DNA of 64,000 bases, from positions 3,288,609 through 3,352,608 of the forward strand of contig OY969726.1 of the NCBI GenBank assembly GCA_963702215.1, in the 5' to 3' direction. Position 1 is the first letter of the stretch, and each line of letters begins with the position of its first letter. The notes under the pieces are model-generated. The model was not told the origin of the DNA. It saw only the letters and a program-made list of their open reading frames with translations, and searched no databases. Origin of the DNA: an uncultured Bacteroidota bacterium (GTDB lineage: Bacteria > Bacteroidota > Ignavibacteria > Palsa-1295). The translations under genes were made by a program, and so were the position numbers. Of this stretch, positions 4,545-55,217 are shown piece after piece.

Positions 4545-5948
4545 TTAGTCATTCGGAGGTTCCAGCGCCCCAGGACTTTCGAAGGCCGGTCCATATCGCT
4601 TCACAAAATTTTGGATGATCCCGGTAAATATAGGATCGACTCCCAACCCGGCCCCGCTGTGGATTGCGGCAGCGTTGAGGACCGCGTTGCCATTCGAGAG
4701 ATACATTAAACTCATTTCTCCGCCGCCGGAGCCATCCCACCGTGGGTCGTCCTGATTGTAGATAATTCCAATCGATTCGGTTTCGCAGTTCATTCCGGAG
4801 GCAATGATTTCTACGTTCTTTGTGCTCCGCCGTGTAGTTTTATCTGTTTCCGCGCCGCAGATCGGCTTTCCATCGATTCCGGCAAGACCAAAAAGATCGC
4901 CCTCACGAGCGCCAAGCCCTTGCAGGATCCAGTGGTCATGCTTTGCCGTGAGCCGGTAGGGTGCATAGGTATGCATCCCGGAGCCATTATACCGCCCTCC
5001 CAGATATCGTTCCTGCGGACGGAAGTGGTGTTTCCACATCCCTCCGTAAAAACGAGTGTGCTCAAAGAAGGTTAGGTCCTTCCGGCATTCCATGCGGGTG
5101 TGATTGCCGTTCCATTTAACGATCCAGTAAAGCTGGTTCGCCCCGAGCGAAATCAGCGAAGCGCCACGCACGATTCTCGATCGTATCGCCCAGTGCATCA
5201 GCTTCGAAATGTACTCGCAATGGTAGGCCAGCACGAGCAGCTTGCACCGATCGAGATGCCCGGCTTCTTCGAGCAGATAATCCGGAATAACTGAAACACT
5301 CGGATAGTTTGACGAAAACCAGTGAAAAATATTCGCTTCTACATGAATTGAGTGGTTGGTCTCAAACGCGGTATTAGGGCGCTCGGTCGAGACAAAATAG
5401 ACGGTTTTGTCTTGGAACTTATTCTGATACAACGATTTCCCTCCCCAGGTATTGTAGGCCGTCCACGTCGAGACTGGCGCAAGAATCACGATCGAAGCAG
5501 GTTCCCTCGTACCGATAATAAAATAAATTTCGAAGGTTTTGCCACTCGATTTATCAGTCAGGAGTGCCTGATAGTAGCCGACACTAAAATCGTCATCGAT
5601 GGACATCGTGAGGGTTGGCTTCCACGCACAGCCTTGTTCGGACGCGGTGGAAGAAATCGCTTGCGGGGCACGAGAAACCGAGACGGCGCGAACCTCCCGA
5701 TATTCGAAAGGACCGGCCATCTTCCGCACCGAGAGCGTATTTTCTGCGGAATCCGAGCGCAAAAAAAATGTGATGGTTTCACCCGCGTAATAAAATTGCT
5801 TGTCGGTGTAACCTTCGGGATTGTGGGGTTCCATGTCCGGCGTCGCCTCATTGCGGACGAAGGAAATGAAGCGGTAACGATAGTACCGCAAAAGGACAGC
5901 CATGACGGCCCCAAGGGCCAGAACTATCGCTACGAGAGAAAGAAGCAT
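4545..5948 (-). CDS. membrane-anchored hypothetical protein; tentatively resembles the N,N-dimethylformamidase beta-subunit-like / glutamine amidotransferase-like fold
   Basis: The ORF runs to 6017. The likely start is MLLSLVAIVLALGAVMAVLL (a TM helix) at 5948. Motif ILAPVSTWTAYNTWGG. The assignment is from memory of the family and is uncertain. Confidence 0.35.
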   Translation of the reverse strand: MLLSLVAIVLALGAVMAVLLRYYRYRFISFVRNEATPDMEPHNPEGYTDKQFYYAGETITFFLRSDSAENTLSVRKMAGPFEYREVRAVSVSRAPQAISSTASEQGCAWKPTLTMSIDDDFSVGYYQALLTDKSSGKTFEIYFIIGTREPASIVILAPVSTWTAYNTWGGKSLYQNKFQDKTVYFVSTERPNTAFETNHSIHVEANIFHWFSSNYPSVSVIPDYLLEEAGHLDRCKLLVLAYHCEYISKLMHWAIRSRIVRGASLISLGANQLYWIVKWNGNHTRMECRKDLTFFEHTRFYGGMWKHHFRPQERYLGGRYNGSGMHTYAPYRLTAKHDHWILQGLGAREGDLFGLAGIDGKPICGAETDKTTRRSTKNVEIIASGMNCETESIGIIYNQDDPRWDGSGGGEMSLMYLSNGNAVLNAAAIHSGAGLGVDPIFTGIIQNFVKRYGPAFESPGALEPPND

Positions 5949-6091
5949 CGAAGAAATGCGAAGCGGGAAATTGCGAATTCTAAAAATTATGCCGCGAGTG
6001 ATGTAACAATCCCACACCCTCTTGTGTCCCTGTTTTAGAACGCCGGCTTGGACCGCGACGAACTGTCGAACTTCTCGTTTTTTTTATTATT

Positions 6092-8863
6092 ATGAATATA
6101 GCAAGAATTCGCGGGCGAGAAATCGTCAAGCGCACTGTGGTTTTTCATTCCATTCTTTCCCGGCTTCGCGCCGGGACGCTCTTCGCTGTCGCGTTCCTCC
6201 TGGTTATCGGGGGCTATGCTGTTCTCGAAACGAGTGCGCATTCCGCCGGGATCACGGGATATACCCAAAAATCGACGAACGTCGGGTGTTACTGCCATTG
6301 CTCCTCGGCCAGCGGTGGCACCACGGTATCGATCACAACCAATGCGACGACGTTCTATACGGGCCAAACCTATCAGTTTACCGCGACGGTTTCGAACAGT
6401 GGCGAATCGGCTGCCGGAATCGACATCGCAACGGAATTTGGAACGTTGAGCGCCATCTCGGGACAGGGGCTCTGGCTATCGAGTGGGGAACTCACTCATT
6501 CAGCTCCCAAATCGCTCGCGGCGAGTTGGAACTTCAACTGGACCGCCCCTTCTTCACCGACCTACGACACCATTTTTGCGACCGGTAATGCCGTTAATGG
6601 CGATGGCGCTAATGATGGCGGAAATTGCACGGACAATTGGAACTTTGCCCCAAAGTATATTATCCATGTGGTCCCGGCACAAACGATGCGGCTTGCTTTC
6701 GGTCGAGGTTCGATCTTGCTGGGTTCTGTTCGCGTCGGCCACCGGGTTGCGGATTCGCTGCTGGTTCGCTCCACCGGCACGGGGGCGCTCACGATCAATT
6801 CGAGCGCGATGAAATCCGGGGCGCAATTTTCGAGGTACCCCAGCACGACTAATCGCACACTCGATGCCGGCACGATCGAAGTCGATAGCGCCATTTTTGC
6901 TCCCACGGCGCGGGGTACTTTCAACGACTCACTGATTTTTAGCACGAATTCCGATACCTTGCCCGAACAACGAACCGGTGTTTCTGTATCGGGTCAGGGA
7001 ATTCAAGCTATTTTTGCGGCGACAAATGGCACCAGCCTCTCCTTCGGAAACCTTCGTGTGGGCCGCACGGCTACCGATACGTTCCACTACTCGAATTCAG
7101 GCGACGATACGCTCTTTCTTCAAGCTCCAAGGATTTCGGGCAATGGGTTTTCCATCGTATCCGGCGGAACTGCCGATACTTTGCCGCCCAATCAAACAAG
7201 AAGCGTTGCCGTGCAGCTTGCGCCTGACGCGAAACAATCTTACAGCGGAACTTTATCTTTTACTGCTTCCGATGAGGTTACCACGCCAGCGGTGAGTTTG
7301 AGCGGAAATGGAACGCTCCCGCAAATCCAAGTTTTGTCTCGCCAAAACCTTGGGCAAATTCGTACAGGGCTGACCCTCGCCGGAACCGCTACATTCCAAA
7401 ACACCGGCAACGATACGCTGCATATTTCGAATGCGACCCTGACCCAGCTTTCGACAGAATTCTCATTGGGAGCCTACGATCAAGCCGTGGCCCCCGGTGC
7501 CATCGGAACGATTCACATTTCCTATACCGCAGACAGCGAGACCACGGACACTGCAACCCTGCATTTCATAACGGACGATCCCTCGGATTCCACGGTTGCA
7601 GTCACACTAACCGCGGCCGGGACTGCGCCGCACATGGCCATAACAGAGAACAGCGATACCCTCGATCTCGGCGAGGTCAAAGTGAATTCGAGCGTTACGC
7701 ACGACATTGCCGTTACCGATAATGGCATGGCTATCCTGACCCTCACCAACGTTGCAGCCGGCCCAGCGCCATTCGGTATTGCAGCGAATCCCGTTATTGT
7801 CGGCGCTGAGGGAACCGCCTATGTAACCGTAAGCTTTGCGCCCTTGACTGTGGGCACATTTTCTGGAATGCTCGTCATTCAAAGTGACGATCCCCAAAAT
7901 CCATCGGACACGGTTTATCTTTCCGGGCAGGGAATCAATAGTTCACTCACAATCTCTCCGGCCAGCGTTGCCTTCGGATCGATTTCGGTTTCCACCACGG
8001 CAGTGGATACGATCGAGTTGAGCAACACCGGTTCGGCCAGCCTGAATATCAATGGTTACGAGCTTTCTCCTGCCTCCGGCAGTTTTACGGTGGTCGATTC
8101 CTCGGCGCATCGGGTATCGGCGGGCGATTCGGTCAGCGTGATCGTGAGTTTCCATCCCGATACGTCAGGAAGCTATTCGGGAACCCTGACGCTGCTCACC
8201 GACGATGGCGGCGCGCCGGAGCGCACCATCGATCTTTCCGGGTATGGAGTTAAAGGCGCGCTTAGCCTCTCCGCTTCTTCCCTCGATTTCGGCAGCGTAC
8301 TCGTTGGCCGTGATTCGGCGATGAGGCTGATGCTTCGAAACAGCGGCCAGGCAAGCGTCACACTTAGTTCGATTAACTTCACCGGTCCCGGCGCCAGTGC
8401 CTTCAACGATGGTGCGTTTTCTACACCGTCGTCATTAACAGCCGGAGATTCAATCGCTTTGACGTTAACCTTCACGCCCTCCGCGTCCCAACTATATGAG
8501 GGAATGGTTCAGTTTATGCTTGGAGATGGGACAGATGTCGCCATTCCCATCAAAGGAGCTGGCGCGAGTGCGGAAGTTTCGTCGCCCAATTTTGGAAGCG
8601 AGGCGCTCTCATTCTCCATCACACCAAATCCCGCAGCAAATTTCGTTACCATCCATTCGACCGCCGAAAATGCCTCTGAAACACACCTGGATGTATTCGA
8701 TGCGAGCGGTCACGAAGTTCTTCACAAATCGCTCGGGATGCTGCCGGCGGGGGAGCACGATGTGGCCCTGCCGTTAACAACGCTCGTGAACGGCAGTTAC
8801 TTTGTCCGTATGAGGAATGGGAATGGCGATTGGGCGCAGCGAAGTTTGATTCTGGAGAAATAG
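6092..8863 (+). CDS. large secreted multi-Ig-like-repeat (choice-of-anchor-D-like) protein with a T9SS C-terminal sorting domain
   Basis: 923 aa. N-terminal TM/signal FAVAFLLVIGGYAVL. About 8 repeats of the L.FG.V.VG.....L...N.G...L.I.S pattern. C-terminus ...SFSITPNPAANFVTIHSTAENASETHLDVFDASGHEVLHKSLGMLPAGEHDVALPLTTLVNGSYFVRMRNGNGDWAQRSLILEK is a typical type-A T9SS C-terminal domain. Confidence 0.6.
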   Translation: MNIARIRGREIVKRTVVFHSILSRLRAGTLFAVAFLLVIGGYAVLETSAHSAGITGYTQKSTNVGCYCHCSSASGGTTVSITTNATTFYTGQTYQFTATVSNSGESAAGIDIATEFGTLSAISGQGLWLSSGELTHSAPKSLAASWNFNWTAPSSPTYDTIFATGNAVNGDGANDGGNCTDNWNFAPKYIIHVVPAQTMRLAFGRGSILLGSVRVGHRVADSLLVRSTGTGALTINSSAMKSGAQFSRYPSTTNRTLDAGTIEVDSAIFAPTARGTFNDSLIFSTNSDTLPEQRTGVSVSGQGIQAIFAATNGTSLSFGNLRVGRTATDTFHYSNSGDDTLFLQAPRISGNGFSIVSGGTADTLPPNQTRSVAVQLAPDAKQSYSGTLSFTASDEVTTPAVSLSGNGTLPQIQVLSRQNLGQIRTGLTLAGTATFQNTGNDTLHISNATLTQLSTEFSLGAYDQAVAPGAIGTIHISYTADSETTDTATLHFITDDPSDSTVAVTLTAAGTAPHMAITENSDTLDLGEVKVNSSVTHDIAVTDNGMAILTLTNVAAGPAPFGIAANPVIVGAEGTAYVTVSFAPLTVGTFSGMLVIQSDDPQNPSDTVYLSGQGINSSLTISPASVAFGSISVSTTAVDTIELSNTGSASLNINGYELSPASGSFTVVDSSAHRVSAGDSVSVIVSFHPDTSGSYSGTLTLLTDDGGAPERTIDLSGYGVKGALSLSASSLDFGSVLVGRDSAMRLMLRNSGQASVTLSSINFTGPGASAFNDGAFSTPSSLTAGDSIALTLTFTPSASQLYEGMVQFMLGDGTDVAIPIKGAGASAEVSSPNFGSEALSFSITPNPAANFVTIHSTAENASETHLDVFDASGHEVLHKSLGMLPAGEHDVALPLTTLVNGSYFVRMRNGNGDWAQRSLILEK

Positions 8864-22226: not shown

Positions 22227-23128
22227 ACATAGCAATGATCGGCTTAGGCCGCATGGGCGCAAACATGGCTCAGCGCCTGAAAAACGGCGGGCACATCGTC
22301 ATCGGATATGACCCGAACGCAGAAGCCAGAGCGAGGGTAGAAGCCGAAGGTCTTTCGACTTTCGCTTCCCTCGCGTCCCTTGCGTCCGCCCTTCCGCAAC
22401 CAAGGATTGTCTGGATCATGGTTCCGGCCGGGAACCCAGTGGATGAAACGATCGAGGCGCTTTCTCCGCTGCTCGCGAAGGGCGACGTTCTCATCGACGG
22501 CGGCAACTCCTATTACAAAGACACACTCCGCCGTGCCGAAATGCTTCGGAGCATTGGAATTTCGTATGTCGATTGCGGTACGAGCGGAGGAATCTGGGGC
22601 CTGGAAGAAGGCTACGGGATGATGATAGGGGGAGACGATGACGTCGTGAAAACCATCGCGCCACTCTTCGAGGCGCTGGCTCCAGAAAAGGATAAAGGGT
22701 GGGGGCGCGTCGGCCCGTGTGGCGCCGGGCATTTCGTAAAAATGGTTCACAATGGTATCGAGTATGGACTGATGCAGGCATACGCCGAAGGTTTTTCAAT
22801 ATTGAAGCACAAGCCAGATTTCGAGATCGATACTCACCAGGTTGCGGAAATATGGCGCTTCGGAACGGTGATTCGTTCGTGGCTGCTCGATCTTGCCGCC
22901 GATGCGCTGGCAAAGAATCCGAATCTCGATGGCATCGCACCGGTCGTTGCCGATTCGGGCGAGGGCCGGTGGACAGCCTTCGAGGCGATCGAAAATAACG
23001 TTCCAGCGCCGGTTATCACGCTTTCGCTCCTCGAACGCATTCGTTCCCGCGAAGTGGAATCGTTCGGCGATAAATTGCTCTCTGCACTTCGGAATGAATT
23101 TGGTGGACACCCGATCACGAAAGAGTAA
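22223..23128 (+). CDS. gnd: 6-phosphogluconate dehydrogenase (decarboxylating), short-chain (~300 aa) form
   Basis: MNIAMIGLGRMGANMAQRL (NAD(P)-binding Rossmann motif), GGNSYYKDT, CGTSGGIWGLEEGY. Its ATG overlaps the glucoamylase stop (ATGA). Confidence 0.8.
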   Translation: MNIAMIGLGRMGANMAQRLKNGGHIVIGYDPNAEARARVEAEGLSTFASLASLASALPQPRIVWIMVPAGNPVDETIEALSPLLAKGDVLIDGGNSYYKDTLRRAEMLRSIGISYVDCGTSGGIWGLEEGYGMMIGGDDDVVKTIAPLFEALAPEKDKGWGRVGPCGAGHFVKMVHNGIEYGLMQAYAEGFSILKHKPDFEIDTHQVAEIWRFGTVIRSWLLDLAADALAKNPNLDGIAPVVADSGEGRWTAFEAIENNVPAPVITLSLLERIRSREVESFGDKLLSALRNEFGGHPITKE

Positions 23129-24562
23129 TGCTAACCCATACCAAACCCGAATCCTGCATCCTCGCACTCTTTGGCGCGACGGGCGATCTCGCCCACCGTA
23201 AAATCCTCCCTGCACTCTTTGCCATGGCTGATGCCAAGGAGCTGCCGGAGGATACCGTCATCCTCGGAATTGGCAGGAACAAAGCCAAGAAGGATGATGC
23301 ATTTCGGCGAGGAGGTCCGCCGTTCAATCGAGCAATCCGGCGGGAAGGATTCAGAGAGAATCCAGTCTTGGTGTTCCACACAAATGTATTATTCGGGCAT
23401 CGATGCCGGAACAAAAGGGGATTATAACCGGCTCCGGGACCGCATCATCGCGCTCGAAAAGAAACACAAGTTGAATGGGAACCGAATTTTTTATCTGGCT
23501 ATCCCACCGCAATTTTTCGAGCCGACGGTTAGGTCTATCAGTGATGCCGGGATGAACGATTCCAAGGGATGGACGAGGCTCGTCATTGAAAAGCCGTTTG
23601 GCCGGGACCTTAAAAGCGCGCTCGAGCTCAATACGGTGATCACGAAATATTTCAGTGAAGAGCAGATCTATCGGATGGACCATTATCTCGGCAAAGAGAC
23701 CGTGCAGAATTTGCTCACTTTTCGCTTCGGAAATTCGATCTTCGAATCGTTGTGGAATCGGGAGAAGATCGAAAAAGTGGAGATCACAGTTGCCGAGCAA
23801 CTTGGTGTCGAAGAGCGAGCGGATTATTATGACCAAAGTGGCGCACTGCGTGACATGATTCAGAACCATCTTACGCAGCTAATGGCGCTCACGGCGATGG
23901 AAATTCCCGAAGCATTCGATGCGATCGACTTGCGCTACGAAAAAGTGAAAGTCCTGCGCGCGATTCGCGCGATTGATAACGAAGACGTGGTAATGGGGCA
24001 ATATGCCGAAGGCGAAATCGGCGGACACGGCGTCTATAGTTATCGGAAGGAAGATGGGGTAAAGCGTGGCTCGAAAACGCCTACGTTCGCGGCGCTCAAG
24101 TTGCACATCAATAACTGGCGCTGGAGCGGCGTGCCGTTTTACCTCCGCACTGGCAAGCGGCTAAAAGAAACGAAATCGGAGATTGTAATTACGTTCCGCT
24201 GCCCGCCGATTTCGCTCTTCAAGTCATCGGAGGGAGTGGGAACCAGAGCGAACGTGCTGGTCATTGCGATCCAGCCGAATGAAGGATTCAAAGTTCTTTT
24301 TCAAGTAAAGCGGCCTGGGCTTGCGATGGCCGTAAACTCGGAATGGATGCACTTTTCTTACTCCGAAGCATTCGGGCCAATTCCCGAAGCGTACCATACG
24401 CTCCTGCTCGATGTCATGCGCGGCGACCAAACGCTCTTCGTTTCCGCCGATGAAACGCTCGAATCATGGAAGCTTTACACGCCGGTGCTTCACCATCATC
24501 ATGATCTTCATTTCTATCCCGCGGGCTCGTGGGGACCGGAGCAAGCGGAGAAACTCGTGTAG
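23128..24562 (+). CDS. zwf: glucose-6-phosphate 1-dehydrogenase, split by a frameshift
   Basis: ORF 23128..23427 gives the N-terminus (LFGATGDLAHRKILPALF...DTVILGIGRNK). ORF 23171..24562 gives the rest (DHYLGKETVQNLLTFRFGNSIFESLWNR, RDMIQNHLTQ). The frame switches near 23290..23310 (KKDDAF | GEEVRRSIEQ). Confidence 0.85.
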
Positions 24563-24689
24563 CCGCGACCTTTAGGTCATGGCGAGTAGGTCATGGCGAG
24601 TTCATTGGCATTATTCGCCGTGACCTGAAATTCACGGCTACAAATGTGGAACCGCGGGCTTTCCAATGGAGTTTGGGAGCGGCACTTAG

Positions 24690-24771
24690 GCGGGAGTGGC
24701 GAAATTGGCAGACGCACTACTTTGAGGTGGTAGCGCCGCGAGGCGTGGGGGTTCAAGTCCCCCCTCCCGCA
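24690..24771 (+). tRNA. tRNA-Leu (anticodon GAG), type II with a variable-arm hairpin
   Basis: Acceptor stem GCGGGAG/CTCCCGC. D-arm GCG-AAATTGGCAGA-CGC. Anticodon stem CTACT/GGTAG with loop TTGAGGT. Variable arm CGCC-GCGA-GGCG. T-arm GGGGG-TTCAAGT-CCCCC. Discriminator A. No encoded CCA. Confidence 0.8.
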
Positions 24772-24828
24772 CACGTTGAGTAACGAGGAAGGAGTTGGGA
24801 ACAGCTCCTCACTCTCCCTATTTTCCGC

Positions 24829-26313
24829 TTAATACCCCGCCGACACCAGTTCCCTCCGTAACTCTTTAAGATACGTCGGATGCACGTCGCCGTAGTAAAG
24901 CGCGCTCGGTTCGAGCACGAGCGTTCCGAAACTCGAGGGATTGCCGGCTTCGTAGTGGCTCGTCGCCTGCACGGTTAATTCATTGGGCCGCGCGGGATCA
25001 TCGACATCATAGACGAGCGCGGTAAAACCGAGCGTCGCGGCATTGGTAATACTCGCGGTCGGTGCAGACGTTGCTTCATCGCTCGTAGTACTCACCGGTA
25101 CCGGCGTTTCGTAGTAATGTTCCGGGTTCGTCTCAAAGCCGAGGAAACTGAAAGGAATTCGAAGCGTGAGCCGATAGCCATCGGTGGCATTATTTAGCGT
25201 ATCGTACTCCATGACCGCGCGAACTCGAGCGAGACCCTGCTTCTCGAGCGGCGAGAGCGTGCTGGACGGGGTGCTGTAAGTAATTTGTGTTACCGGACCG
25301 GCATGAGAGGGAAGCACGAAGGTAATGCTGGACACGAGTGAATCCATATGCGTTCGGAAAACCGGAAACCCACCTTCTTCGGAAACAATACGGCGGTCGC
25401 GGTTGAGGCGGTCGCCGGTATATTTTGTATCAAACCAGAAGGTGACGCGGTCGTTTGCATCGTCATTCGAGTTGCCGCCGATTACATAGTCATCCCGCAC
25501 GCGAAGGGCAATATAAATATAGTCATCGGTATAAGCAGTCCGCATGGAACGAATGGAAAGATCGCTCGCATCGCGTCGAAGGCCGAGGCCCCCAATGATG
25601 AAATCGGTTGACGAATCGGAAAGGAGATCGCCGTAGCCTGGATAAAGTTCCCGCGTGCGCTCATACGACGGCAGGGTATAATAGGATTGCGAAAGCATCG
25701 GGCCGCCGGTTTCACCAGTAAAATAATTCTCGCGCGTGAGCAGCGATCGATAATTGCGATAGACATCGTGCCCCAGCGGATGCGGCTTCCCGTTTTTTGC
25801 CGCAAGCCCTATTTCCTGTGTCTCATAGCGGCTTACGAGGGTCACATCGCCATAGATAATTGAATAACCCTCCTGGACCCAATGGTTATCGCCGGTTTTT
25901 TGCGTGATAGTGATGATGGAACTATCGACATCGAGCCCCACTTCGATGGGCGATTCCACATAAGGAATTTCGCGCTCGAATTCATCGGCGAGCCGTTTGT
26001 TATCGACATTCTCGAATAGATAGACACGGACCTTATTCGAGGCAGATCCCGCATCATATACCGAAATAGCCAGATCGGGAAGCGAATCGTGTGTGAAATC
26101 CCCGATGGCGAGACCCCACACATGCGCGTTCGCATAATCGGGAATGAGGTCGCGAAGCTGCTCCGCGAGCGCCGGATTGTGTAGCTCCGTACCAATGCGC
26201 GGCAGGATGCTATCGACTATCATCCCTTGCGCGAATGACTGCGCGGGGCGCGCGATCACCTCGCAAAAAAAGAGTGGAAGCGCGAATGCCAGAACGAATC
26301 GGTGTGTTCTCAT
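24829..26313 (-). CDS. hypothetical secreted protein
   Basis: The ORF is listed to 26433. The likely start is MRTHRFVLAFALPLFFCEVIARPAQSFAQG (signal peptide). No recognisable catalytic motif. Confidence 0.4.
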   Translation of the reverse strand: MRTHRFVLAFALPLFFCEVIARPAQSFAQGMIVDSILPRIGTELHNPALAEQLRDLIPDYANAHVWGLAIGDFTHDSLPDLAISVYDAGSASNKVRVYLFENVDNKRLADEFEREIPYVESPIEVGLDVDSSIITITQKTGDNHWVQEGYSIIYGDVTLVSRYETQEIGLAAKNGKPHPLGHDVYRNYRSLLTRENYFTGETGGPMLSQSYYTLPSYERTRELYPGYGDLLSDSSTDFIIGGLGLRRDASDLSIRSMRTAYTDDYIYIALRVRDDYVIGGNSNDDANDRVTFWFDTKYTGDRLNRDRRIVSEEGGFPVFRTHMDSLVSSITFVLPSHAGPVTQITYSTPSSTLSPLEKQGLARVRAVMEYDTLNNATDGYRLTLRIPFSFLGFETNPEHYYETPVPVSTTSDEATSAPTASITNAATLGFTALVYDVDDPARPNELTVQATSHYEAGNPSSFGTLVLEPSALYYGDVHPTYLKELRRELVSAGY

Positions 26314-44108: not shown

Positions 44109-44394
44109 GTTCGTTTGAAAAAAGTGAAACCCTCTAAATAGAAGACCCGCGAAACGGCAAAAGGTAACAGCCTTTTCGAAGAATTATTCCCTGAAAATGA
44201 AGCAGCGTTCATGCCGCCCAGTGCCGGAGGCACGCAGTAGCCCCGAAGGGGGGAAGTACCCGCAGCCCAGAGCCTGCCCTCGACCCGATCGCGGGTGGAA
44301 CGAAGTGGAACCCTGGGTACGCAAAGCCATCATAACCCGTTAGCCCTGCAAGGGCGATGTACGCCGATTCAGTCCCGTTAGGGACGGCATATTC

Positions 44395-44567
44395 GTAGCC
44401 CAGTGCGTAAGCGCTGGGATTGGGATTGAAAAAAGATTCCATAGCTCCGTAGGAGCGATATATTCCCCGCGTGATAATATGCCGCTCCTACGGAGCTTGG
44501 GATTCTTTGGCTTTTCGCAACCCAGCGCTTACGCACTGGGCTACGAATATTGCACTCCTACGGAGCT
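44395..44567. repeat. large nested inverted repeat (~65-nt arms) immediately after the last small ORF of the island
   Basis: Arm 1 at 44395..44457 consists of block A (GTAGCCCAGTGCGTAAGCGCTGGG), a spacer, then block B (AGCTCCGTAGGAGCG). Arm 2 at 44483..44544 is its reverse complement, with blocks A and B perfect and the middle divergent. A third B-like copy lies at 44553..44567. Confidence 0.6.
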
Positions 44568-44693
44568 GGGATTCGTTCCCCCCACAATCCTGATTTCCTC
44601 CGCGCTTAAACCGTAAAGCTGATAGACGAGTGTATCGATCTCCGCACGCGCGCCCGCGATCTGTCGGGTGAGGAGGGTGCGATCAGACATGCA
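44541..44693 (-). other. 50-aa ORF that consists only of the conserved C-terminal tail of a Type II/IIG N6-adenine methyltransferase (remnant)
   Basis: MSDRTLLTRQIAGARAEIDTLVYQLYGLSAEEIRIVGGTNPSSVGVQYS. It is about 80% identical at the nucleotide level to the 3' end of the R-M gene at 45751..45860. Its ATG overlaps the stop of the 203-aa ORF (ATGTCTGA). Confidence 0.4.
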
Positions 44694-45294
44694 TGAGTTC
44701 TCGGAACTTTGCCTCGACCTCGTGCCTGGTCGCTGCAATCTGACTCTCCAATAAAAGCAGCGCCTGTTGCGAAGTCTTAACAATGTCCAGCTGGCTATTC
44801 GCTCCAACACCAACGCCATACAAAGCATTTTGGAGCGGCGCAAAGGCGGCATCAATTTCGGAACGAAGTTTGTCGATTTGCTCGCAGAGCGAATCATTCA
44901 GCCAAATTTTGTTCGATTCATATGAAGCAACGAAATCTTTCAGGGCGTGCAAGAAATCATCCGCCTTAGGCCATTTGCTTTCGTGAGCCTCACCGGGAAC
45001 ACGTATAAGGTCCCTTCCTTTGCCAAACACCTGCGACAACTTAGAATATAGTTCCTTAAATACAACACCCTGTTCCTCTCGTAATCGAGCCAACCGGATC
45101 TCGTCCCACTTGTTGTTTCGGGCTATTTCACCTTTCAATTTTTCCAGTTCTCGATTTGAAGCACTGGCTAATTCGTTTTTGTATTTTTCCAAACCTTTCT
45201 CGGCTACCACTTCAGCCCGCTTCTTCACATAAGCGGGTATTCCGATCACTATCACAGCGAGAAGCGCTATGTCGATAATGTTTGATATGCTCAT
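44683..45294 (-). CDS. hypothetical membrane-anchored coiled-coil protein (cassette gene in the R-M island)
   Basis: 203 aa. N-terminal TM helix IIDIALLAVIVIGIPAYV, then Lys/Glu-rich coiled-coil. Its ATG overlaps the stop of an upstream R-M tail fragment (ATGA). Confidence 0.45.
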   Translation of the reverse strand: MSISNIIDIALLAVIVIGIPAYVKKRAEVVAEKGLEKYKNELASASNRELEKLKGEIARNNKWDEIRLARLREEQGVVFKELYSKLSQVFGKGRDLIRVPGEAHESKWPKADDFLHALKDFVASYESNKIWLNDSLCEQIDKLRSEIDAAFAPLQNALYGVGVGANSQLDIVKTSQQALLLLESQIAATRHEVEAKFRELMHV

Positions 45295-45750: not shown

Positions 45751-48700
45751 TCAACCCTCCATTATCCTAATTTCCTCCTCGCTCAAACCGTAAAGCTGGT
45801 AAACGAGTTTATCGATCTCCGCATCCACGCCCGCGATCTGGCGAGTGAGGAGGGTGCGATTCTGGCCATCGCTCATCTTTTTAAGTTGGTTATGCAGATC
45901 GATTTCCCTTTCAACGTATTTTTCCATCAGCTTTATCTGCTTCGTTGAAACATCTTTTGGTACGGGAATCTTTCGCAAATCGCCGACCGATAATCGCGGA
46001 AAGGCATTCGCTACCATCTTGTTCGAAATGTACGGGTAAATTCTTGAGATTAATGTGGAATCTAAAATTCCCACAAGATATTTCATTGAGTAGTCGGATT
46101 CGGGAAGTGGATTGATGTTGAGGATGGTCTTGTAATTACAATATGTATCCTCCGTGTACGTTGCTTGCAGTGCGTGGGGTTGCTTTCCCGATATTTCGCG
46201 AATCAGAATTCTTGGCCCTTGTAGCCAGTCCATCGTTCGGTAATCGTGAAGCCAGGGGCCGTACTTAATCCACTGGCCTCTCACCCTCTCAAGCTCATAG
46301 CGAGAAACGTCACTACCCGCAAGCTCTGGAAGATATTCGGAAGACAGCTTTTTATCGGCATGAAAAACTCTGTTCTCGATTTGTTGTTTTGTGTGCTTAG
46401 AACTATTGTATGCCTGGCATCCGAGCGAAGCACGCGCGACCGTTCCCAGCGGAATCGATTGCTTTAGGATTTGATCCGCGAGTTTTCCCATAGGATCCAT
46501 CCTTCTCGTCTCAATGATGTGTCCTTCGTTTTTAAACCAATCAATCTGCTTTGCGTGGTATTCTTGCCCGCTCGTAGGATCGGAATCGGCGTCGATAACA
46601 CGCACTTCGTGCGAATCGCTGGCTACTATTTTCGAAAGAAAGACCAGCGCCGTGTTTACGGTTGCGGACTCGAAAACGAATCCTTTGAATGTTACGAGTT
46701 CGTCTATCTGAGTCTTTTCAAGAATATACTTCCTTAAGGACTTGGTAAAGACCTGAGTAAGCCAAGGATTTGGAACGATAAATCCAAGCTTTCCTTCTGG
46801 CTTGAGCAGTTCTATTCCTCGTTCGATAAAAAGCTGAAATAGGTCTGCCTTGTATTCTGCTGTTCCGAAGTGTAATAAATATTTGGCGGTTCTAGCATCG
46901 AACAGGTCTTTACCTATAACCACATACGGCGGGTTCCCAATGACGACATCGAAGCCGCCGTTTCGCATAATATCGGGGAAGGCTTGCTTCCAGTCCATCG
47001 GATTTATTTTGGCGGTGTCCGGGGAATAACCACCCCCTGCCCCCTCCTTGAAAAGGAGGGGGTTGTTGTAGTAATCGGTTCCGATGAGGGAGTTGCCGCA
47101 GAGGATGTTCCGGTCGAGATCGGGGAGCAGTCGCTCGGCGGTGTCGTAGGCAATGCGCTGGGTTCCTCCGTCGCTCCCGCCGCTCTCTCCGCCTTCGAGG
47201 ACTTTGAGCATCAAATTCAGCTTCGCCACTTCCACCGCGTTCCTGTCAATATCGACGCCGTGAATGTGGTCGAGCAAGATGCGCTTCCGCTCGCGCGGGG
47301 AAAGGCGATAATCTTTTTTCGTGGGGTCGGAAGTGGGAATGCGGTCGAGAACTTTCTTTTTTGTCCAGGATTCCGGCTCATTGGCGAGATAGAATTTGAG
47401 ATACCAATCGAGTAAATACTGATACGCTCCGAGCAGGAAGGAACCGGAGCCGCAGGCGGGATCTAAAATTGTGGGTGTGGGACATGCTTTAGCTTGTCCC
47501 TTCTTATCTTTGGACCAAGCTAAAGCATGGTCCACACCCAGCATTTTTCCGACGGTATTCTTCACAATATAATCGACAATATAGCTCGGCGTGTAATAGA
47601 CGCCGCCGGCTTTTTTTACTTCGGGCTTTTCTTCGACGCGGGCGTTGCCGCCTTTCGTCAGCGTGATGACTTGTCCCAGGAACTGCTCATACACGTGGCC
47701 CAGAATATCCGAGGGAACGATATCGAATGCATACGGACTTTCGGGATAATAAAGATGCCTGATGATGTCGGTGAGCACTTTATCGTCAATGGCAAGTCGC
47801 GGGGTGAGCGCGTCGAATCCTTCGCGGCTCTTCTCTTTCCTGAAATGGAAGAGACCGGAATTGAAGCGGTCGTCGGCGGCGCGGAAACGGTTGAGGAGAT
47901 TCTGGTAAACAGAACCAACCACCCCCCGTCCCCCGCCTTGAAAAGGCGGGGGAGTTTTTGTTTTTTGGGTTCCGTCTATGAGATAGCGCAGCCTGGCGTC
48001 GAGGGCAAGGTTCCCATATTGCTCGATCTTTCGGTCCCTCGCAGATGCGGAGCATGATAATGCGGTCGAGCGTAATTTGCACGGCGCTGTTTAGCTCGGA
48101 TTCGGACAGCCCTTTGTTGCGGAGCGCGATATTTTCGGCAAGCTTCTTTCGCCAGGCGATCATATCGGCGAGGAACTGTTTATCGAAGGGCGTGGTGCCG
48201 CGCTTGCCTTTTGCCTGCGCGGCGTATTTATCGAAGCGTCCTTTCCAGACGGCTTCGCGGGAAAACGTTTCCACGAGCCAGTCCCATTTCTCTTCGTACT
48301 GTTCGAAGTTGAAAAATTCGATGCGGTCTTTATAGGGCGCGTCGGTGGGTTTGGGAACGGAAGTAGTTTGATAAACGGCGAATTCCTCGAAATCGGAAAG
48401 CAGTGAGATGGAAAGTCCGGCGCTCCAGGCGTAGCGTTTCAATTGATAGGCCGGCGCGACGTCCGTTGCGAGGTGAACTTTGGGCGCTTTGCATTCGAGA
48501 AAGAATTTCTTCTCGCTGCCCACGCGGAAGGTATAATCGGGAGCCTTCATTGCGCCTTCAATGCGAAGCGAATCCTCGTGGATGACCTCTTTGTAGGCTT
48601 CGGCGAGTCCGGCACGATTCGTCATATCCCATCCGAGTTCCCACCAGAAGGGATTGATAAATTCCTCCCGAAGCTGCGCTTCTTTGTATTGGGCGCTCTT

Positions 48701-49104: not shown

Positions 49105-50499
49105 TTATGCCCCGTATTTCTCCGGCCACAGCGCCTTCAATCGTTGCAGAATCGTCTTTTCGCGGCCTTGCTCGGTGGGGTGGTAGAAGACTTTATCCTG
49201 GAGCGATTCTGGTAGATACGTTTCGCCTTTGGCGAAATGTCCGGGCTCGGAGTGGGCATAGCGGTAACCTTCGTGGTAACCTAATTCCTTCATGAGCTTT
49301 GTTGGCGCATTGCGGAGATGAAGTGGCACCGGCTGGTCGGGATTTTGGCGGGCTTCTTCCATTGCCGCGCCGATGGCAACGGTCGTCGCATTGGATTTGG
49401 CCGCGGATGCGAGATATGCAACCACCTGCCCGAAAATAAGCTGCGCCTCGGGGTAACCGACGGCACGGACGGCATCCCAGCAGGCCGTGGCGAGCAGGAG
49501 CGCATTGGGATCGGCATTGCCGATGTCCTCGCTGGCGAAGATAATCATGCGGCGGGCGATGAATTCCAAATCCTCGCCGGATTCGATCATGCGGGCGCAC
49601 CAATAGAGCGCGGCGTTGGGATCCGATCCGCGCATGGATTTGATGAAGGCACTGATGATATTATAATGCTCCTCGCCGGCTTTATCGTAACGGGAAGCTT
49701 TTCGCCCGAAGGCGGCTTCGATGGTTTCAACGGTAAGGCCGAGCGAGGACGCTCGACCTACGCGTAGGTCGGTCGTCCTCGCCCGACTCTCCGGTTCTGC
49801 AAGCTGCACGGCGAGTTCCAGGGCGTTCAGCATCTTGCGAGCATCGCCGCCGGAAAGGGCCATGAGGGCGCGGCGAACATCTTCGGAGAGCGTAATGTCG
49901 AGCGATTTTAGTTCTTCGTCTTCTTTTAAGGCGCGGTCGAGCAGCGTTTCCAAATCTTCGCGTGAGAGACGTTCGAGCACGAAAACGCGGGCGCGGGAAA
50001 GCAGCGGCGAGATAACTTCGAAGGAGGGATTTTCCGTCGTCGCGCCGATAAGAGTTACCACACCGTGCTCGACCGCGCCCAAAAGCGCATCTTGCTGCGA
50101 TTTCGAGAAGCGGTGGACTTCGTCAATAAAAAGCACGCTCCGGTCTTCGGCGGTCGTGTTCGCTTCGCGCGCTTGTTCGATAGCCTCGCGCAAATCCTTG
50201 ACTCCGGCGCTGATGGCCGAAAGCGAAAAAAATGGCGCGCGGACCGAGCGAGCGAGAATATTCGCAATCGTCGTCTTGCCGGAACCCGGCGGACCCCAAA
50301 AGATCATCGAGTGCAGCTTGCCGCGCTCGATCATCATGCGGAGCGGCTTTCCTGGACCGACGAGCGCGCGTTGCCCCACAACTTCGTCTAAGGTTCGCGG
50401 GCGCATTCGTTCCGCGAGGGGAAGGAAGGAATGTGGATGGGTAAGCGCTAATGGGTCGGTTTCCGAGCATTCGAGCTTTGGTTGCTTTTGTCGTGGCAT
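49105..50499 (-). CDS. rarA: replication-associated recombination protein A (AAA+ ATPase MgsA/RarA)
   Basis: Walker A GPPGSGKTT, Walker B VLFIDEVHRF, and a MgsA C-terminal domain. Confidence 0.85.
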   Translation of the reverse strand: MPRQKQPKLECSETDPLALTHPHSFLPLAERMRPRTLDEVVGQRALVGPGKPLRMMIERGKLHSMIFWGPPGSGKTTIANILARSVRAPFFSLSAISAGVKDLREAIEQAREANTTAEDRSVLFIDEVHRFSKSQQDALLGAVEHGVVTLIGATTENPSFEVISPLLSRARVFVLERLSREDLETLLDRALKEDEELKSLDITLSEDVRRALMALSGGDARKMLNALELAVQLAEPESRARTTDLRVGRASSLGLTVETIEAAFGRKASRYDKAGEEHYNIISAFIKSMRGSDPNAALYWCARMIESGEDLEFIARRMIIFASEDIGNADPNALLLATACWDAVRAVGYPEAQLIFGQVVAYLASAAKSNATTVAIGAAMEEARQNPDQPVPLHLRNAPTKLMKELGYHEGYRYAHSEPGHFAKGETYLPESLQDKVFYHPTEQGREKTILQRLKALWPEKYGA

Positions 50500-53533: not shown

Positions 53534-54736
53534 ATGTACGGAAAAGTCAAAGAGGAATTAACGAAGGAACTTCAGGCCATTCGGGACGCCGGTCTTTATA
53601 AGAACGAGCGGGAGATTACCACGCCGCAGGGTGTCGAAATCAAAGTCAAAGGTTCCGACAAAACCATTCTCAATTTTTGCGCGAATAATTATCTCGGGCT
53701 GTCGTCGCACCCGAAAGTGATCGAGGCGGCGCGGCGCGCGCTCGATACGCACGGCTACGGGATGTCCAGCGTGCGGTTTATTTGCGGCACGCAGGATTTG
53801 CACAAAGAGCTGGAACGCGAAATTTCGCGATTTTTGGGAACCGACGATACCATTCTTTACGTAGCCTGCTTCGATGCGAACGGCGGCGTGTTCGAGCCCC
53901 TTTTCGGTGAAGAGGATGCGATCATTTCGGACGAGTTGAATCACGCCTCCATCATCGATGGCGTCCGGCTCGCGAAAGCGAAGCGATTCCGTTACAAACA
54001 TGCCGATATGCGCGATCTCGAAGCGCAGTTACTGGATGCGCAATCCGCGCGGCGGCGCGTCGTCGTTACCGATGGCGTGTTTTCGATGGATGGCGATATT
54101 GCGAAGCTCTCGGAAATTTGCGATCTTGCCGATAGGTACGATTCGCTCGTGATGGTGGATGATTCCCATGCGACTGGCTTCGTCGGCAAAACGGGCCGAG
54201 GTTCCATCGAGCATGAAAATGTGATGGGCCGTGTCGATATGATTACTTCCACCTTAGGCAAAGCGCTGGGCGGCGCGGCGGGAGGGTTTACTTCGGGAAG
54301 GAAAGAGATTATCGAGATGCTCCGTCAGCGTTCGCGGCCGTATCTTTTTTCGAATACGCTTCCGCCGCCCATTGCCGGCGCCGCGCTCGAAGTTATTCAC
54401 ATGCTCGAATCCACGACGGAACTGCGCGACAAGCTCGAATCCAACACCCAATACTTCCGGGAACGAATGACCGAAGCCGGATTTGACATCAAGCCGGGAA
54501 TTCATCCCATCGTGCCGATCATGCTCTACGATGCGCCGCTCGCGCAGAAATTCGCCGCGCGTTTGCAGGACGAGGGAATTTATGTCACGGGATTTTTCTA
54601 CCCTGTCGTCGCCAAAGGGCAAGCACGTATTCGCGTCCAGATTTCCGCCGCGCACGAGCGGCATCATCTCGATCAGGCTATCGAGGCATTCACCAAAGTT
54701 GGCGAGGAGCTGGGCGTGCTGAAAGTAATGGCGTGA
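53534..54736 (+). CDS. kbl: glycine C-acetyltransferase (2-amino-3-ketobutyrate CoA ligase)
   Basis: Nearly collinear with E. coli Kbl: [56 protein letters not shown] (PLP-lysine). Confidence 0.9.
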
Positions 54737-54788
54737 ACTGTAGCCGCGGCTTTCAGGTCACGGCGAGCGATTCAAATTGCCGGAATGA

Positions 54789-55217
54789 ATGGCAGGCAAA
54801 ATTTCGTTAAGTACCGATCTTGTCAAAGACGCCTCGATCATGAGGAGCACTCCACTTCATACAAAGGTTCTCGCGCTCGTTGGGATTACGGCTCTGGTGC
54901 TGCAACTCAGCGCCGTGCCGTTCGAGGCGTTCCTCTTTCATCTTAATCAGGACTACATTGCCCGCCATTTATGCGAGCATAAGACCCCGAATTGCAACGG
55001 GCATTGTTTTCTCATGAAGCAAATGGCGAAATCGAGCAATGCGTCAAAAGATAAAAATACTGAACGCACCGGTGGCCAGCTCGACGGACATTTTTTAGTT
55101 TCGGCGTTAAATAGTCTAACGCTCTTCCCAGCTCCGGCGACTTATCTTGCGCTTTCCTCCGAGCCCGCAGTAGCGGGTTGGCGTTCGACACTCTTGCAGC
55201 CTCCTCGAATTGGATAG
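54789..55217 (+). CDS. hypothetical small protein with an N-terminal TM/signal segment and a Cys/His cluster
   Basis: The likely start is MRSTPLHTKVLALVGITALVLQLSAVPF. Cys/His cluster HLCEHKTPNCNGHCF. Confidence 0.3.
   Translation: MAGKISLSTDLVKDASIMRSTPLHTKVLALVGITALVLQLSAVPFEAFLFHLNQDYIARHLCEHKTPNCNGHCFLMKQMAKSSNASKDKNTERTGGQLDGHFLVSALNSLTLFPAPATYLALSSEPAVAGWRSTLLQPPRIG

Follow-up and report, generated by a model that had tools for sequence, protein, structure and literature searches.

Probable decayed copies of a GTAG-tagged palindromic repeat family after zwf and kbl in an uncultured Kapaibacterium-like member of the Bacteroidota

When a stretch of 64,000 nucleotides from an uncultured Bacteroidota bacterium (contig OY969726.1, positions 3,288,609 to 3,352,608; hereafter the window) was analyzed, the stem-loops that follow the zwf and kbl genes were found to be, very probably, eroded copies of a repetitive extragenic palindrome (REP) that carries a GTAG tag. 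They are arranged as a REP doublet forming a hairpin (REPIN) after zwf and as a lone unit after kbl. The family to which they are assigned is dispersed, tagged with GTAG and conserved in its hairpin, occurs mostly as inverted dimers and flanks REP-associated tyrosine transposase (RAYT) genes in three related genomes. This kind of element (GTAG-REP/REPIN-RAYT) is already known; what is new is a family of it in an under-sampled Bacteroidota lineage.

Repeat units after zwf and kbl

The profile assignments of zwf (TIGR00871) and kbl (TIGR01822) were confirmed. The 27-nt unit GTAGCCGYGRNYTTYAGGTCAYGGCGA, with a 9-bp stem and a 4-nt loop, is present three times in the window, for a chance expectation of 0 (Table 1). 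All three copies open with TGTAGCC, and the unit can be read as GTAG, a palindrome and GGCGA. When the 25-nt pattern GCCGCGRCYTTYAGGTCAYGGCGAG was searched with up to three mismatches, matches were observed at 24562-24586 (+), 24614-24638 (-) and 54743-54767 (+), against 0.00 expected and with no match at all in 100 dinucleotide-preserving shuffles. Three matches where none are expected exclude chance. A CRISPR-like array was considered and rejected, as the spacing of the copies is not regular. A scan of the window with Rfam 15 returned three tRNAs only, and no family matched the repeat at gathering score.

Behind zwf, the original prediction had described a directly repeated half of a stem-loop followed by an inverted 12-mer that makes a 12-bp hairpin. 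The sequences and coordinates quoted for it are right, including the direct repeat AGGTCATGGCGAGT at 24574-24587 and 24588-24601 and the inverted copy at 24615-24626. However, the inverted segment is part of a full second unit on the minus strand that carries its own GTAG, and the whole dimer folds as a single hairpin of about 34 bp (-50.8 kcal/mol, z -8.44; 0 of 200 shuffles equally stable). The GTAG tag, the complete inverted partner and the relic nature of the copies had been missed. Downstream of the dimer lies a tRNA-Leu(GAG) gene (24690-24772).

Both plus-strand copies stand very close to a stop codon. In the case of zwf, TAGCCGCGACCTTTAGGTCATGGCGAG occupies 24560-24586 and, as the unit starts at GTAG, the stop codon lies inside the repeat. 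In the case of kbl, the stop codon TGA is at 54734-54736, the GTAG of the unit begins 3 nt past it and TAGCCGCGGCTTTCAGGTCACGGCGAG occupies 54741-54767. When a decayed partner of the kbl unit was sought downstream, the best score was 14 against 12.9 ± 2.3 in shuffles (215 of 500 shuffles as high), which is not significant.

Table 1. Repeat units and associated features after zwf and kbl (window coordinates)
Feature	Position	Strand	Sequence and remarks
REP unit A	24559..24585	+	GTAGCCGCGACCTTTAGGTCATGGCGA; TAG of GTAG (24560-24562) is the zwf stop codon; 3 mismatches to consensus
14-nt tandem partial duplication	24587..24600	+	TAGGTCATGGCGAG; template copy 24573-24586 is the 3' half of unit A
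Spacer between inverted units A and B	24601..24614		Loop region of the long hairpin
REP unit B	24615..24641	-	GTAGCCGTGAATTTCAGGTCACGGCGA on the minus strand; full-length inverted partner with its own GTAG; 2 mismatches to consensus
Whole inverted dimer, GTAG ends outside ('HH', REPIN-like)	24558..24642		Between zwf and tRNA-Leu(GAG)
Singleton REP unit after kbl	54740..54766	+	GTAGCCGCGGCTTTCAGGTCACGGCGA; 3 mismatches to consensus

Two Zwf orthologues with 71-72% identity end in AEKM* and AEKLE* and have no REP downstream, whereas the Zwf of the window ends in AEKL-V-TAG, of which V-TAG comes from the repeat. The sequences thus point to an insertion specific to the lineage of the window. The genes downstream of the orthologues differ from those in the window, so that the comparison shows the REP to be absent from two relatives but does not provide a clean empty site. 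These two relatives speak against strict conservation of the element at its position after zwf, as would be expected of a functional RNA tied to the locus. The best named relative of the window Zwf is from 'Candidatus Kapabacteria bacterium' (69%). The organism is a Kapaibacterium-like member of the Bacteroidota; the window also encodes a Por_Secre_tail protein.

The zwf gene itself is split by a 1-nt frameshift near position 23300 (23122-23310). The N-terminal part of about 55 residues, with the GATGDLA NADP motif, is in frame from 23122 and the remainder is in the next frame. The called Zwf has 421 amino acids and begins at position 51 of the TIGR00871 profile; its relatives have 474-481 amino acids. 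Either zwf is a pseudogene here or the split reflects an error of assembly.

The repeat family and its transposase in related genomes

One genome per species (185,579 species) was scanned with the pattern GCCGYGNNNTTYAGGTCAYGGCGA, and 31 loci were found. The set scanned does not include the genome of the window, as its own matching copy was not among the results. Of these, 27 are in six Kapaibacterium-like metagenome-assembled genomes (MAGs) of the Bacteroidota/Ignavibacteriota, which are labeled Candidatus Kapaibacterium, Ignavibacteriota/Ignavibacteriae or 'Bacteroidetes bacterium'. The numbers of loci per MAG were 13 (one fragmented MAG), 6, 4, 3, 2 and 1. The other four matches (an actinomycete, two orthologous Chloroploca loci and a Bacteroidales MAG) are without GTAG and are at about the level of chance, as we estimate that about two would be expected for a 39-bit pattern.

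When units with up to six substitutions were collected from 30 related loci and the window (about 300 kb of related DNA), at least 86 units were obtained, 43 of them distinct. The earlier suggestion of a dispersed intergenic repeat is borne out by this collection. The family consensus GTAGCCGTGACCTTYAGGTCACGGCGA consists of GTAG followed by a palindrome that is perfect over 9-10 bp and whose loop is TY; as a single strand, the GTAG-hairpin sequence is written GTAGCCGTGACCTTCAGGTCACGGCGA. The tag is nearly invariant among the 86 units (G1 in 85, T2 in 84, A3 in 86 and G4 in 84). Its last G can pair with C25, as G-C in 22 and as G·U in 17 of the 43 distinct units.

The stem was then compared across the 43 distinct units. 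Paired cells amount to 94.8%, against 15-38% in controls in which the partner was moved by 1-3 columns. Two-sided changes occur in five of the nine stem pairs (G-C to A-T; C-G to T-A, A-T or G-C; A-T to C-G) and number 16 cells, compared with 3.3 ± 1.6 in shuffles, none of 500 being as high. The mismatch-limited search is not biased toward such changes because a double change in a pair costs two mismatches like any other two. Thus, compensatory changes together with high pairing indicate that the hairpin has been maintained across the family.

Compensatory base changes had been claimed from the window copies themselves, and there the claim does not hold. Where the stems of the two plus-strand copies differ, a transition is seen on one side only (A-T/G·T, C-G/T·G and G·T/G-C), and since about half of all stem transitions leave G·T wobbles, these differences are not evidence of selection. 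At stem pair 8/21, the two copies have in common a C·A that does not pair (T8>C) and that had been overlooked; in unit A this mismatch to the consensus is accompanied by a G·T wobble. It is across the family in other genomes that compensation is seen. As DNA, units A and B and the kbl unit fold at -4.4, -7.9 and -4.2 kcal/mol, compared with -11.2 for the consensus (z -6.4); as RNA, the values are -12.3, -12.0 and -11.6 compared with -18.1. We infer that the window copies are decayed relics of a mobile element and not a locally selected structure.

The units are arranged in a characteristic manner. Of 23 multi-unit clusters, 21 include two units in +/- order with their GTAG ends outward, and none consists of a -/+ pair alone. 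Paired units in the relatives are separated by 11-153 nt (less than 80 nt in all but one), and nearly all clusters there sit between long open reading frames (ORFs) as far as crude ORF calls can tell. The TAG of GTAG is the stop codon of a flanking ORF in five clusters, zwf included (offset -4). Half-unit tandem duplications resembling the 14-nt one of the window are found in locus L022 (5400-5470 and 6009-6035) and in L008 and L014, so that partial duplication of this type, as at window 24573-24600, seems typical of the family. Tandem arrays of whole units were also observed: in L024 (2797-3206), seven units follow one another head to tail at a 48-nt period and are accompanied by an inverted one, and L008 (7238-7312) has three units with a 24-nt period.

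The repeats also flank transposase genes. With a RAYT probe, an ORF for a protein of 160 amino acids was found at 5532-6013 of L022. The protein matches NCBIfam NF047646 'REP-associated tyrosine transposase' with 93 bits (cut-off 80) and Pfam Y1_Tnp PF01797 with 26.9 (cut-off 23). Its sole match in PDB is E. coli TnpA-REP (4ER8; E-value 8.6e-08, 35.5 bits, residues 21-145 against 15-135), and the alignment places DHLH with EHMH (HUH) and YILNNP with YIYINP (the catalytic tyrosine motif). REP units are located upstream of this gene at 5289, 5337 and 5489 and downstream at 6023 and 6072. Its stop codon TAG (6011-6013) falls within a truncated 5' half of the repeat, GTAGCCGTGACTT (6010-6022), which abuts the first full downstream unit. 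Six tandem half-units AGTCACGGCTACA were also noted directly upstream of the gene (5400-5470).

A total of 151 homologues of the L022 protein were found, mostly in Bacteroidota and Ignavibacteria MAGs, and several carry the Joint Genome Institute (JGI) name 'REP element-mobilizing transposase RayT'. The two closest among the matches listed (83-84% identity) are in loci of other assemblies, L035 and L036. Three REP units are upstream and six downstream of the RAYT gene in L035; in L036 the numbers are two and three. The REPtron arrangement, a RAYT gene between copies of the same repeat, is therefore seen three times independently (L022, L035 and L036).

The motifs of the L022 protein (DHLH, WQ and YILNNP) mix features of RAYT subclasses 2.2 (DHLH/WE/YIHYNP), 2.5 (DH[LF]H/WQ/YI[VI]ANP) and 2.4 (NH[IFV]H/WQ/YIxNNP) when compared with the published table (PMC6006769). 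By these motifs it fits no single described subclass cleanly. The same 2018 survey records subclasses 2.4 and 2.6 in Bacteroidetes. A longer Y1 transposase-like protein (221 amino acids; NHIH, WQ and YILNNP) is encoded in L006 at 6477-7142 (-). Its score on NF047646, 74.2 bits, falls short of the cut-off (80), and units of the present REP family were not found up to a distance of about 4 kb from its gene.

Relation to known systems and alternative explanations

GTAG REPs are known in E. coli, Pseudomonas and Stenotrophomonas (Di Nocera, De Gregorio & Rocco 2013, PMC3733652). According to that survey, they are thought to be mobilized by RAYTs, and TnpA-REP cleaves single-stranded REP DNA at GTAG. 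Their stems are mostly of 6-9 bp and many of their loops fit TY. Dimers of the HH type are preferred and can fold as one large stem-loop, and singletons are often dimer remnants. GTAG termini often provide TAG stop codons, and intragenic copies occur in replication and repair genes. The present family agrees with this super-family in its terminal GTAG, its 9-10-bp stem and short TY loop, its HH dimers, clusters and tandem arrays, the TAG stop codons that it supplies to flanking ORFs and the REPtrons; an intragenic copy in a replication gene also has a likely counterpart in the window (rarA, 49729-49796, see below). It differs in that the last G of its tag can pair, so that the tag is not wholly unpaired. 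Going by the text of the survey, its sequence could also be assigned to none of the 24 families described there.

REPINs are replicating doublets that adjoin RAYT genes (Bertels & Rainey 2011, PMC3116915; Bertels et al. 2017, PMC5581495). As in Pseudomonas fluorescens SBW25 and Enterobacteria, the present units form inverted pairs with a short spacer that fold as a long hairpin, the singletons resemble decayed doublets, and copies directly adjoin the RAYT gene. In the alignment of the L022 protein with E. coli TnpA-REP, also named RayT or YafM (4ER8), the histidines of HUH and the tyrosine motif YI.NP coincide. Unlike that enzyme, which it resembles only distantly, the L022 protein is known from sequence alone, and its cognate REP sequence is different.

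The hosts differ as well. The 2013 survey places GTAG REPs in Proteobacteria, Cyanobacteria, Chloroflexi and the Planctomycetes-Verrucomicrobia-Chlamydiae (PVC) group and gives no repeats but those of the CGTC type for Bacteroidetes and Chlorobi (PMC3733652). The range of the GTAG-type REP/REPIN-RAYT system is thus extended to uncultured Kapaibacterium-like Bacteroidota, and the family together with its RAYT would offer a compact system for the study of RAYT specificity outside Proteobacteria.

The explanation that we prefer is as follows. REPs are non-autonomous mobile DNA, and the RAYT (TnpA-REP) is an HUH-Y1 enzyme of the IS200/IS605 superfamily that recognizes the hairpin and its 5' GTAG on single-stranded DNA and cuts and rejoins there. 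In this way, copies are spread through intergenic DNA, in many cases to the immediate 3' ends of genes. The window copies probably arrived by RAYT-mediated transposition in an ancestor and would later have decayed, with two to three substitutions each, the C·A mismatch and a slippage duplication. Their former description as a protein-binding site may stand in one sense only, by analogy, as the type of element that serves as a RAYT substrate and that flanks RAYT genes in three genomes.

If transcribed at the 3' ends of the zwf and kbl mRNAs, the hairpins would at most be passive 3' stabilizers or partial barriers to read-through, and those after zwf may impede read-through into tRNA-Leu. Because they start 0-3 nt from a stop codon, they may also hinder translation termination. 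Liang, Rudd and Deutscher (2015) reportedly found that a REP no more than about 15 nt away from a stop codon reduces translation via ribosome stalling and tmRNA.

Several points weigh against the assignment of the window stem-loops to a mobile REP family. Just three copies, all degenerate, are present in the 64 kb of the source genome that were covered; dispersion in many copies is seen in the related MAGs. No RAYT was detected in the window by tblastn with an E. coli-type probe and the L022 and L006 proteins, and among the 120 RAYT homologues listed (of 151) none is on the source contig of 3,581,381 bp. The GCCGCG variant, to which two window copies belong, has a single match in JGI metagenomes. 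This match (L034) is an inverted dimer from a different organism, and the variant is thus not a widespread subfamily. Mobility is deduced from the anatomy of the family together with published work on E. coli and Pseudomonas. Finally, by crude ORF calls, gene starts and gene ends flank the units in about equal measure (32 and 31), so that a general preference for gene 3' ends is not demonstrated. Positions after stop codons are seen in the five clusters that donate a TAG and in tandem gene contexts of the relatives, where the unit is usually within 25 nt of the upstream stop.

The strongest of the alternatives, which we consider rather unlikely, can coexist with a REP origin. According to it, the hairpins are host-selected 3'-end signals, either terminators that lack a U-tract or stabilizers of mRNA 3' ends, which insulate zwf from tRNA-Leu and end the kbl transcript, and the repeat is dispersed because it was recruited for that job. 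The units do follow the two stop codons at 0 and 3 nt, the zwf dimer is very stable (z -8.4), units in tandem contexts of the relatives keep close to the upstream stop, and a terminator scan gave no canonical terminator in 24300-24900. The single site given by that scan in 54500-55000, at 54915, is unrelated to the kbl unit. REPs have also been hypothesized to act in transcription termination and mRNA stabilization (PMC3733652). A GC-rich hairpin directly downstream of a stop codon does recall a Rho-independent terminator. However, the U-tract is absent, as had been noted from the start: the hairpins are followed by ACAAATGTGG and GCGATTCAAA, with no T-tract. Moreover, the same 27-mer occurs at dozens of unrelated loci in both orientations, by gene starts, between divergent ORFs, in tandem arrays (L024 and L008) and around a transposase gene. 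Taken by itself, the kbl unit forms a hairpin of little stability (z -1.83 in context; DNA z -0.6), and the stem-breaking changes in the window copies are not expected under selection for a strong hairpin. The earlier suggestion of a U-less terminator type is neither supported nor contradicted here, and any role of the repeats as terminators or mRNA stabilizers would be a putative one. An origin as REPs accounts for an unannotated, conserved-looking structure with neither a new RNA nor a new regulator.

It is highly improbable that the palindrome is an operator of a dimeric host regulator, or a nucleoid, gyrase or IHF site, read as double-stranded DNA and unrelated to transposition. The consensus has a perfect 10-bp dyad symmetry, and the bacterial interspersed mosaic elements (BIMEs) of E. 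coli bind gyrase, IHF and Pol I. However, sequence changes that keep the pairing suit a hairpin read on one strand and do not suit a fixed recognition sequence in double-stranded DNA; conservation extends to the GTAG tag and the GGCGA tail, which are asymmetric; and the units lie after stop codons, beside unrelated genes and next to RAYT genes.

Least credible of all is a conventional miniature inverted-repeat transposable element (MITE) derived from an insertion sequence with a DDE transposase, with the inverted units as terminal inverted repeats between target-site duplications: the inverted arms and short spacer (24559-24641) have that appearance superficially, but this candidate was rejected because each arm forms a GTAG-tagged palindrome of its own, units commonly stand singly or in head-to-tail arrays, no direct duplication is seen by inspection at the flanks of the zwf dimer (left ...AAACTCGT, right AAATGTGG...), and the sole transposase found beside the repeats, in three genomes, is an HUH-Y1 RAYT. 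To our knowledge, enzymes of the IS200/IS605 type make no target-site duplications.

For annotation, the GTAG-REP assignment means that the last codon and the stop codon of zwf come from a repeat. Repeats of this kind can give rise to stop codons or take their place, can sit inside genes (rarA) and can confuse terminator and small RNA predictions. A bolder proposal, which we hold to be rather unlikely, is that Kapaibacterium-like Bacteroidota carry a living GTAG-REPIN/RAYT system of their own, with a RAYT lineage that falls cleanly into none of the described subclasses, several GTAG families per genome (three kinds in the window, one of them with identical arms) and insertions that routinely overwrite the stop codons of core metabolic genes such as zwf. 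If this were true, hairpins that overlap stop codons could serve the host, in a phylum with few canonical intrinsic terminators, to adjust translation termination or the decay of mRNA.

Other GTAG palindromes and repeats in the window

Two further pairs of GTAG-tagged palindromes were observed in the window, one in the 44389-44567 region and one inside rarA/mgsA. In the first, GTAGCCCAGTGCGTAAGCGCTGGG stands at 44395-44418 (+) and again at 44521-44544 (-); the two arms are identical, their GTAG ends face outward, and they represent another REP family with a GTAG tag. Nested between them is an inverted pair of AGCTCCGTAGGAGCG (44443 and 44483), of which a further copy lies at 44553. The arms and the inner pair together occupy 44389-44550, and a fold of 44380-44575 gave -121.9 kcal/mol (z -13.5). 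Judging from its identical arms, this element would be younger than the family found after zwf and kbl.

The second pair has its GTAG ends inside (49734-49761 (-) and 49764-49790 (+), within 49729-49796). It lies in the gene for the RarA/MgsA AAA+ ATPase (ORF 49105-50499, minus strand) and falls where the protein has an insertion of 11 residues when compared with E. coli RarA (3PVS). The segment 49729-49796 has the appearance of a REP inserted in frame within a gene associated with replication.

Repeats of other kinds were also noted. Between 44578 and 45860, a 106-nt segment is present in three direct copies (44578, 45301 and 45755) that are 80-87% identical and lie near the 3' ends of adjacent minus-strand ORFs. 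These segments may encode a shared C-terminal domain; ORF 44683-45294, the one checked among them, gave no Pfam match. An inverted repeat at 47465-47547 has 32-nt arms that are 88% complementary and 19 nt apart. Hairpins of the form C5...G5, CCCCCNNCCCCCNCCTTGAAAAGGNGGGGG, are found at 47033-47062 and 47923-47952, 890 nt apart, the latter just past the start of the minus-strand ORF 45751-47922. Neither the inverted repeat nor the C5...G5 hairpins are related in sequence to the GTAG repeats.

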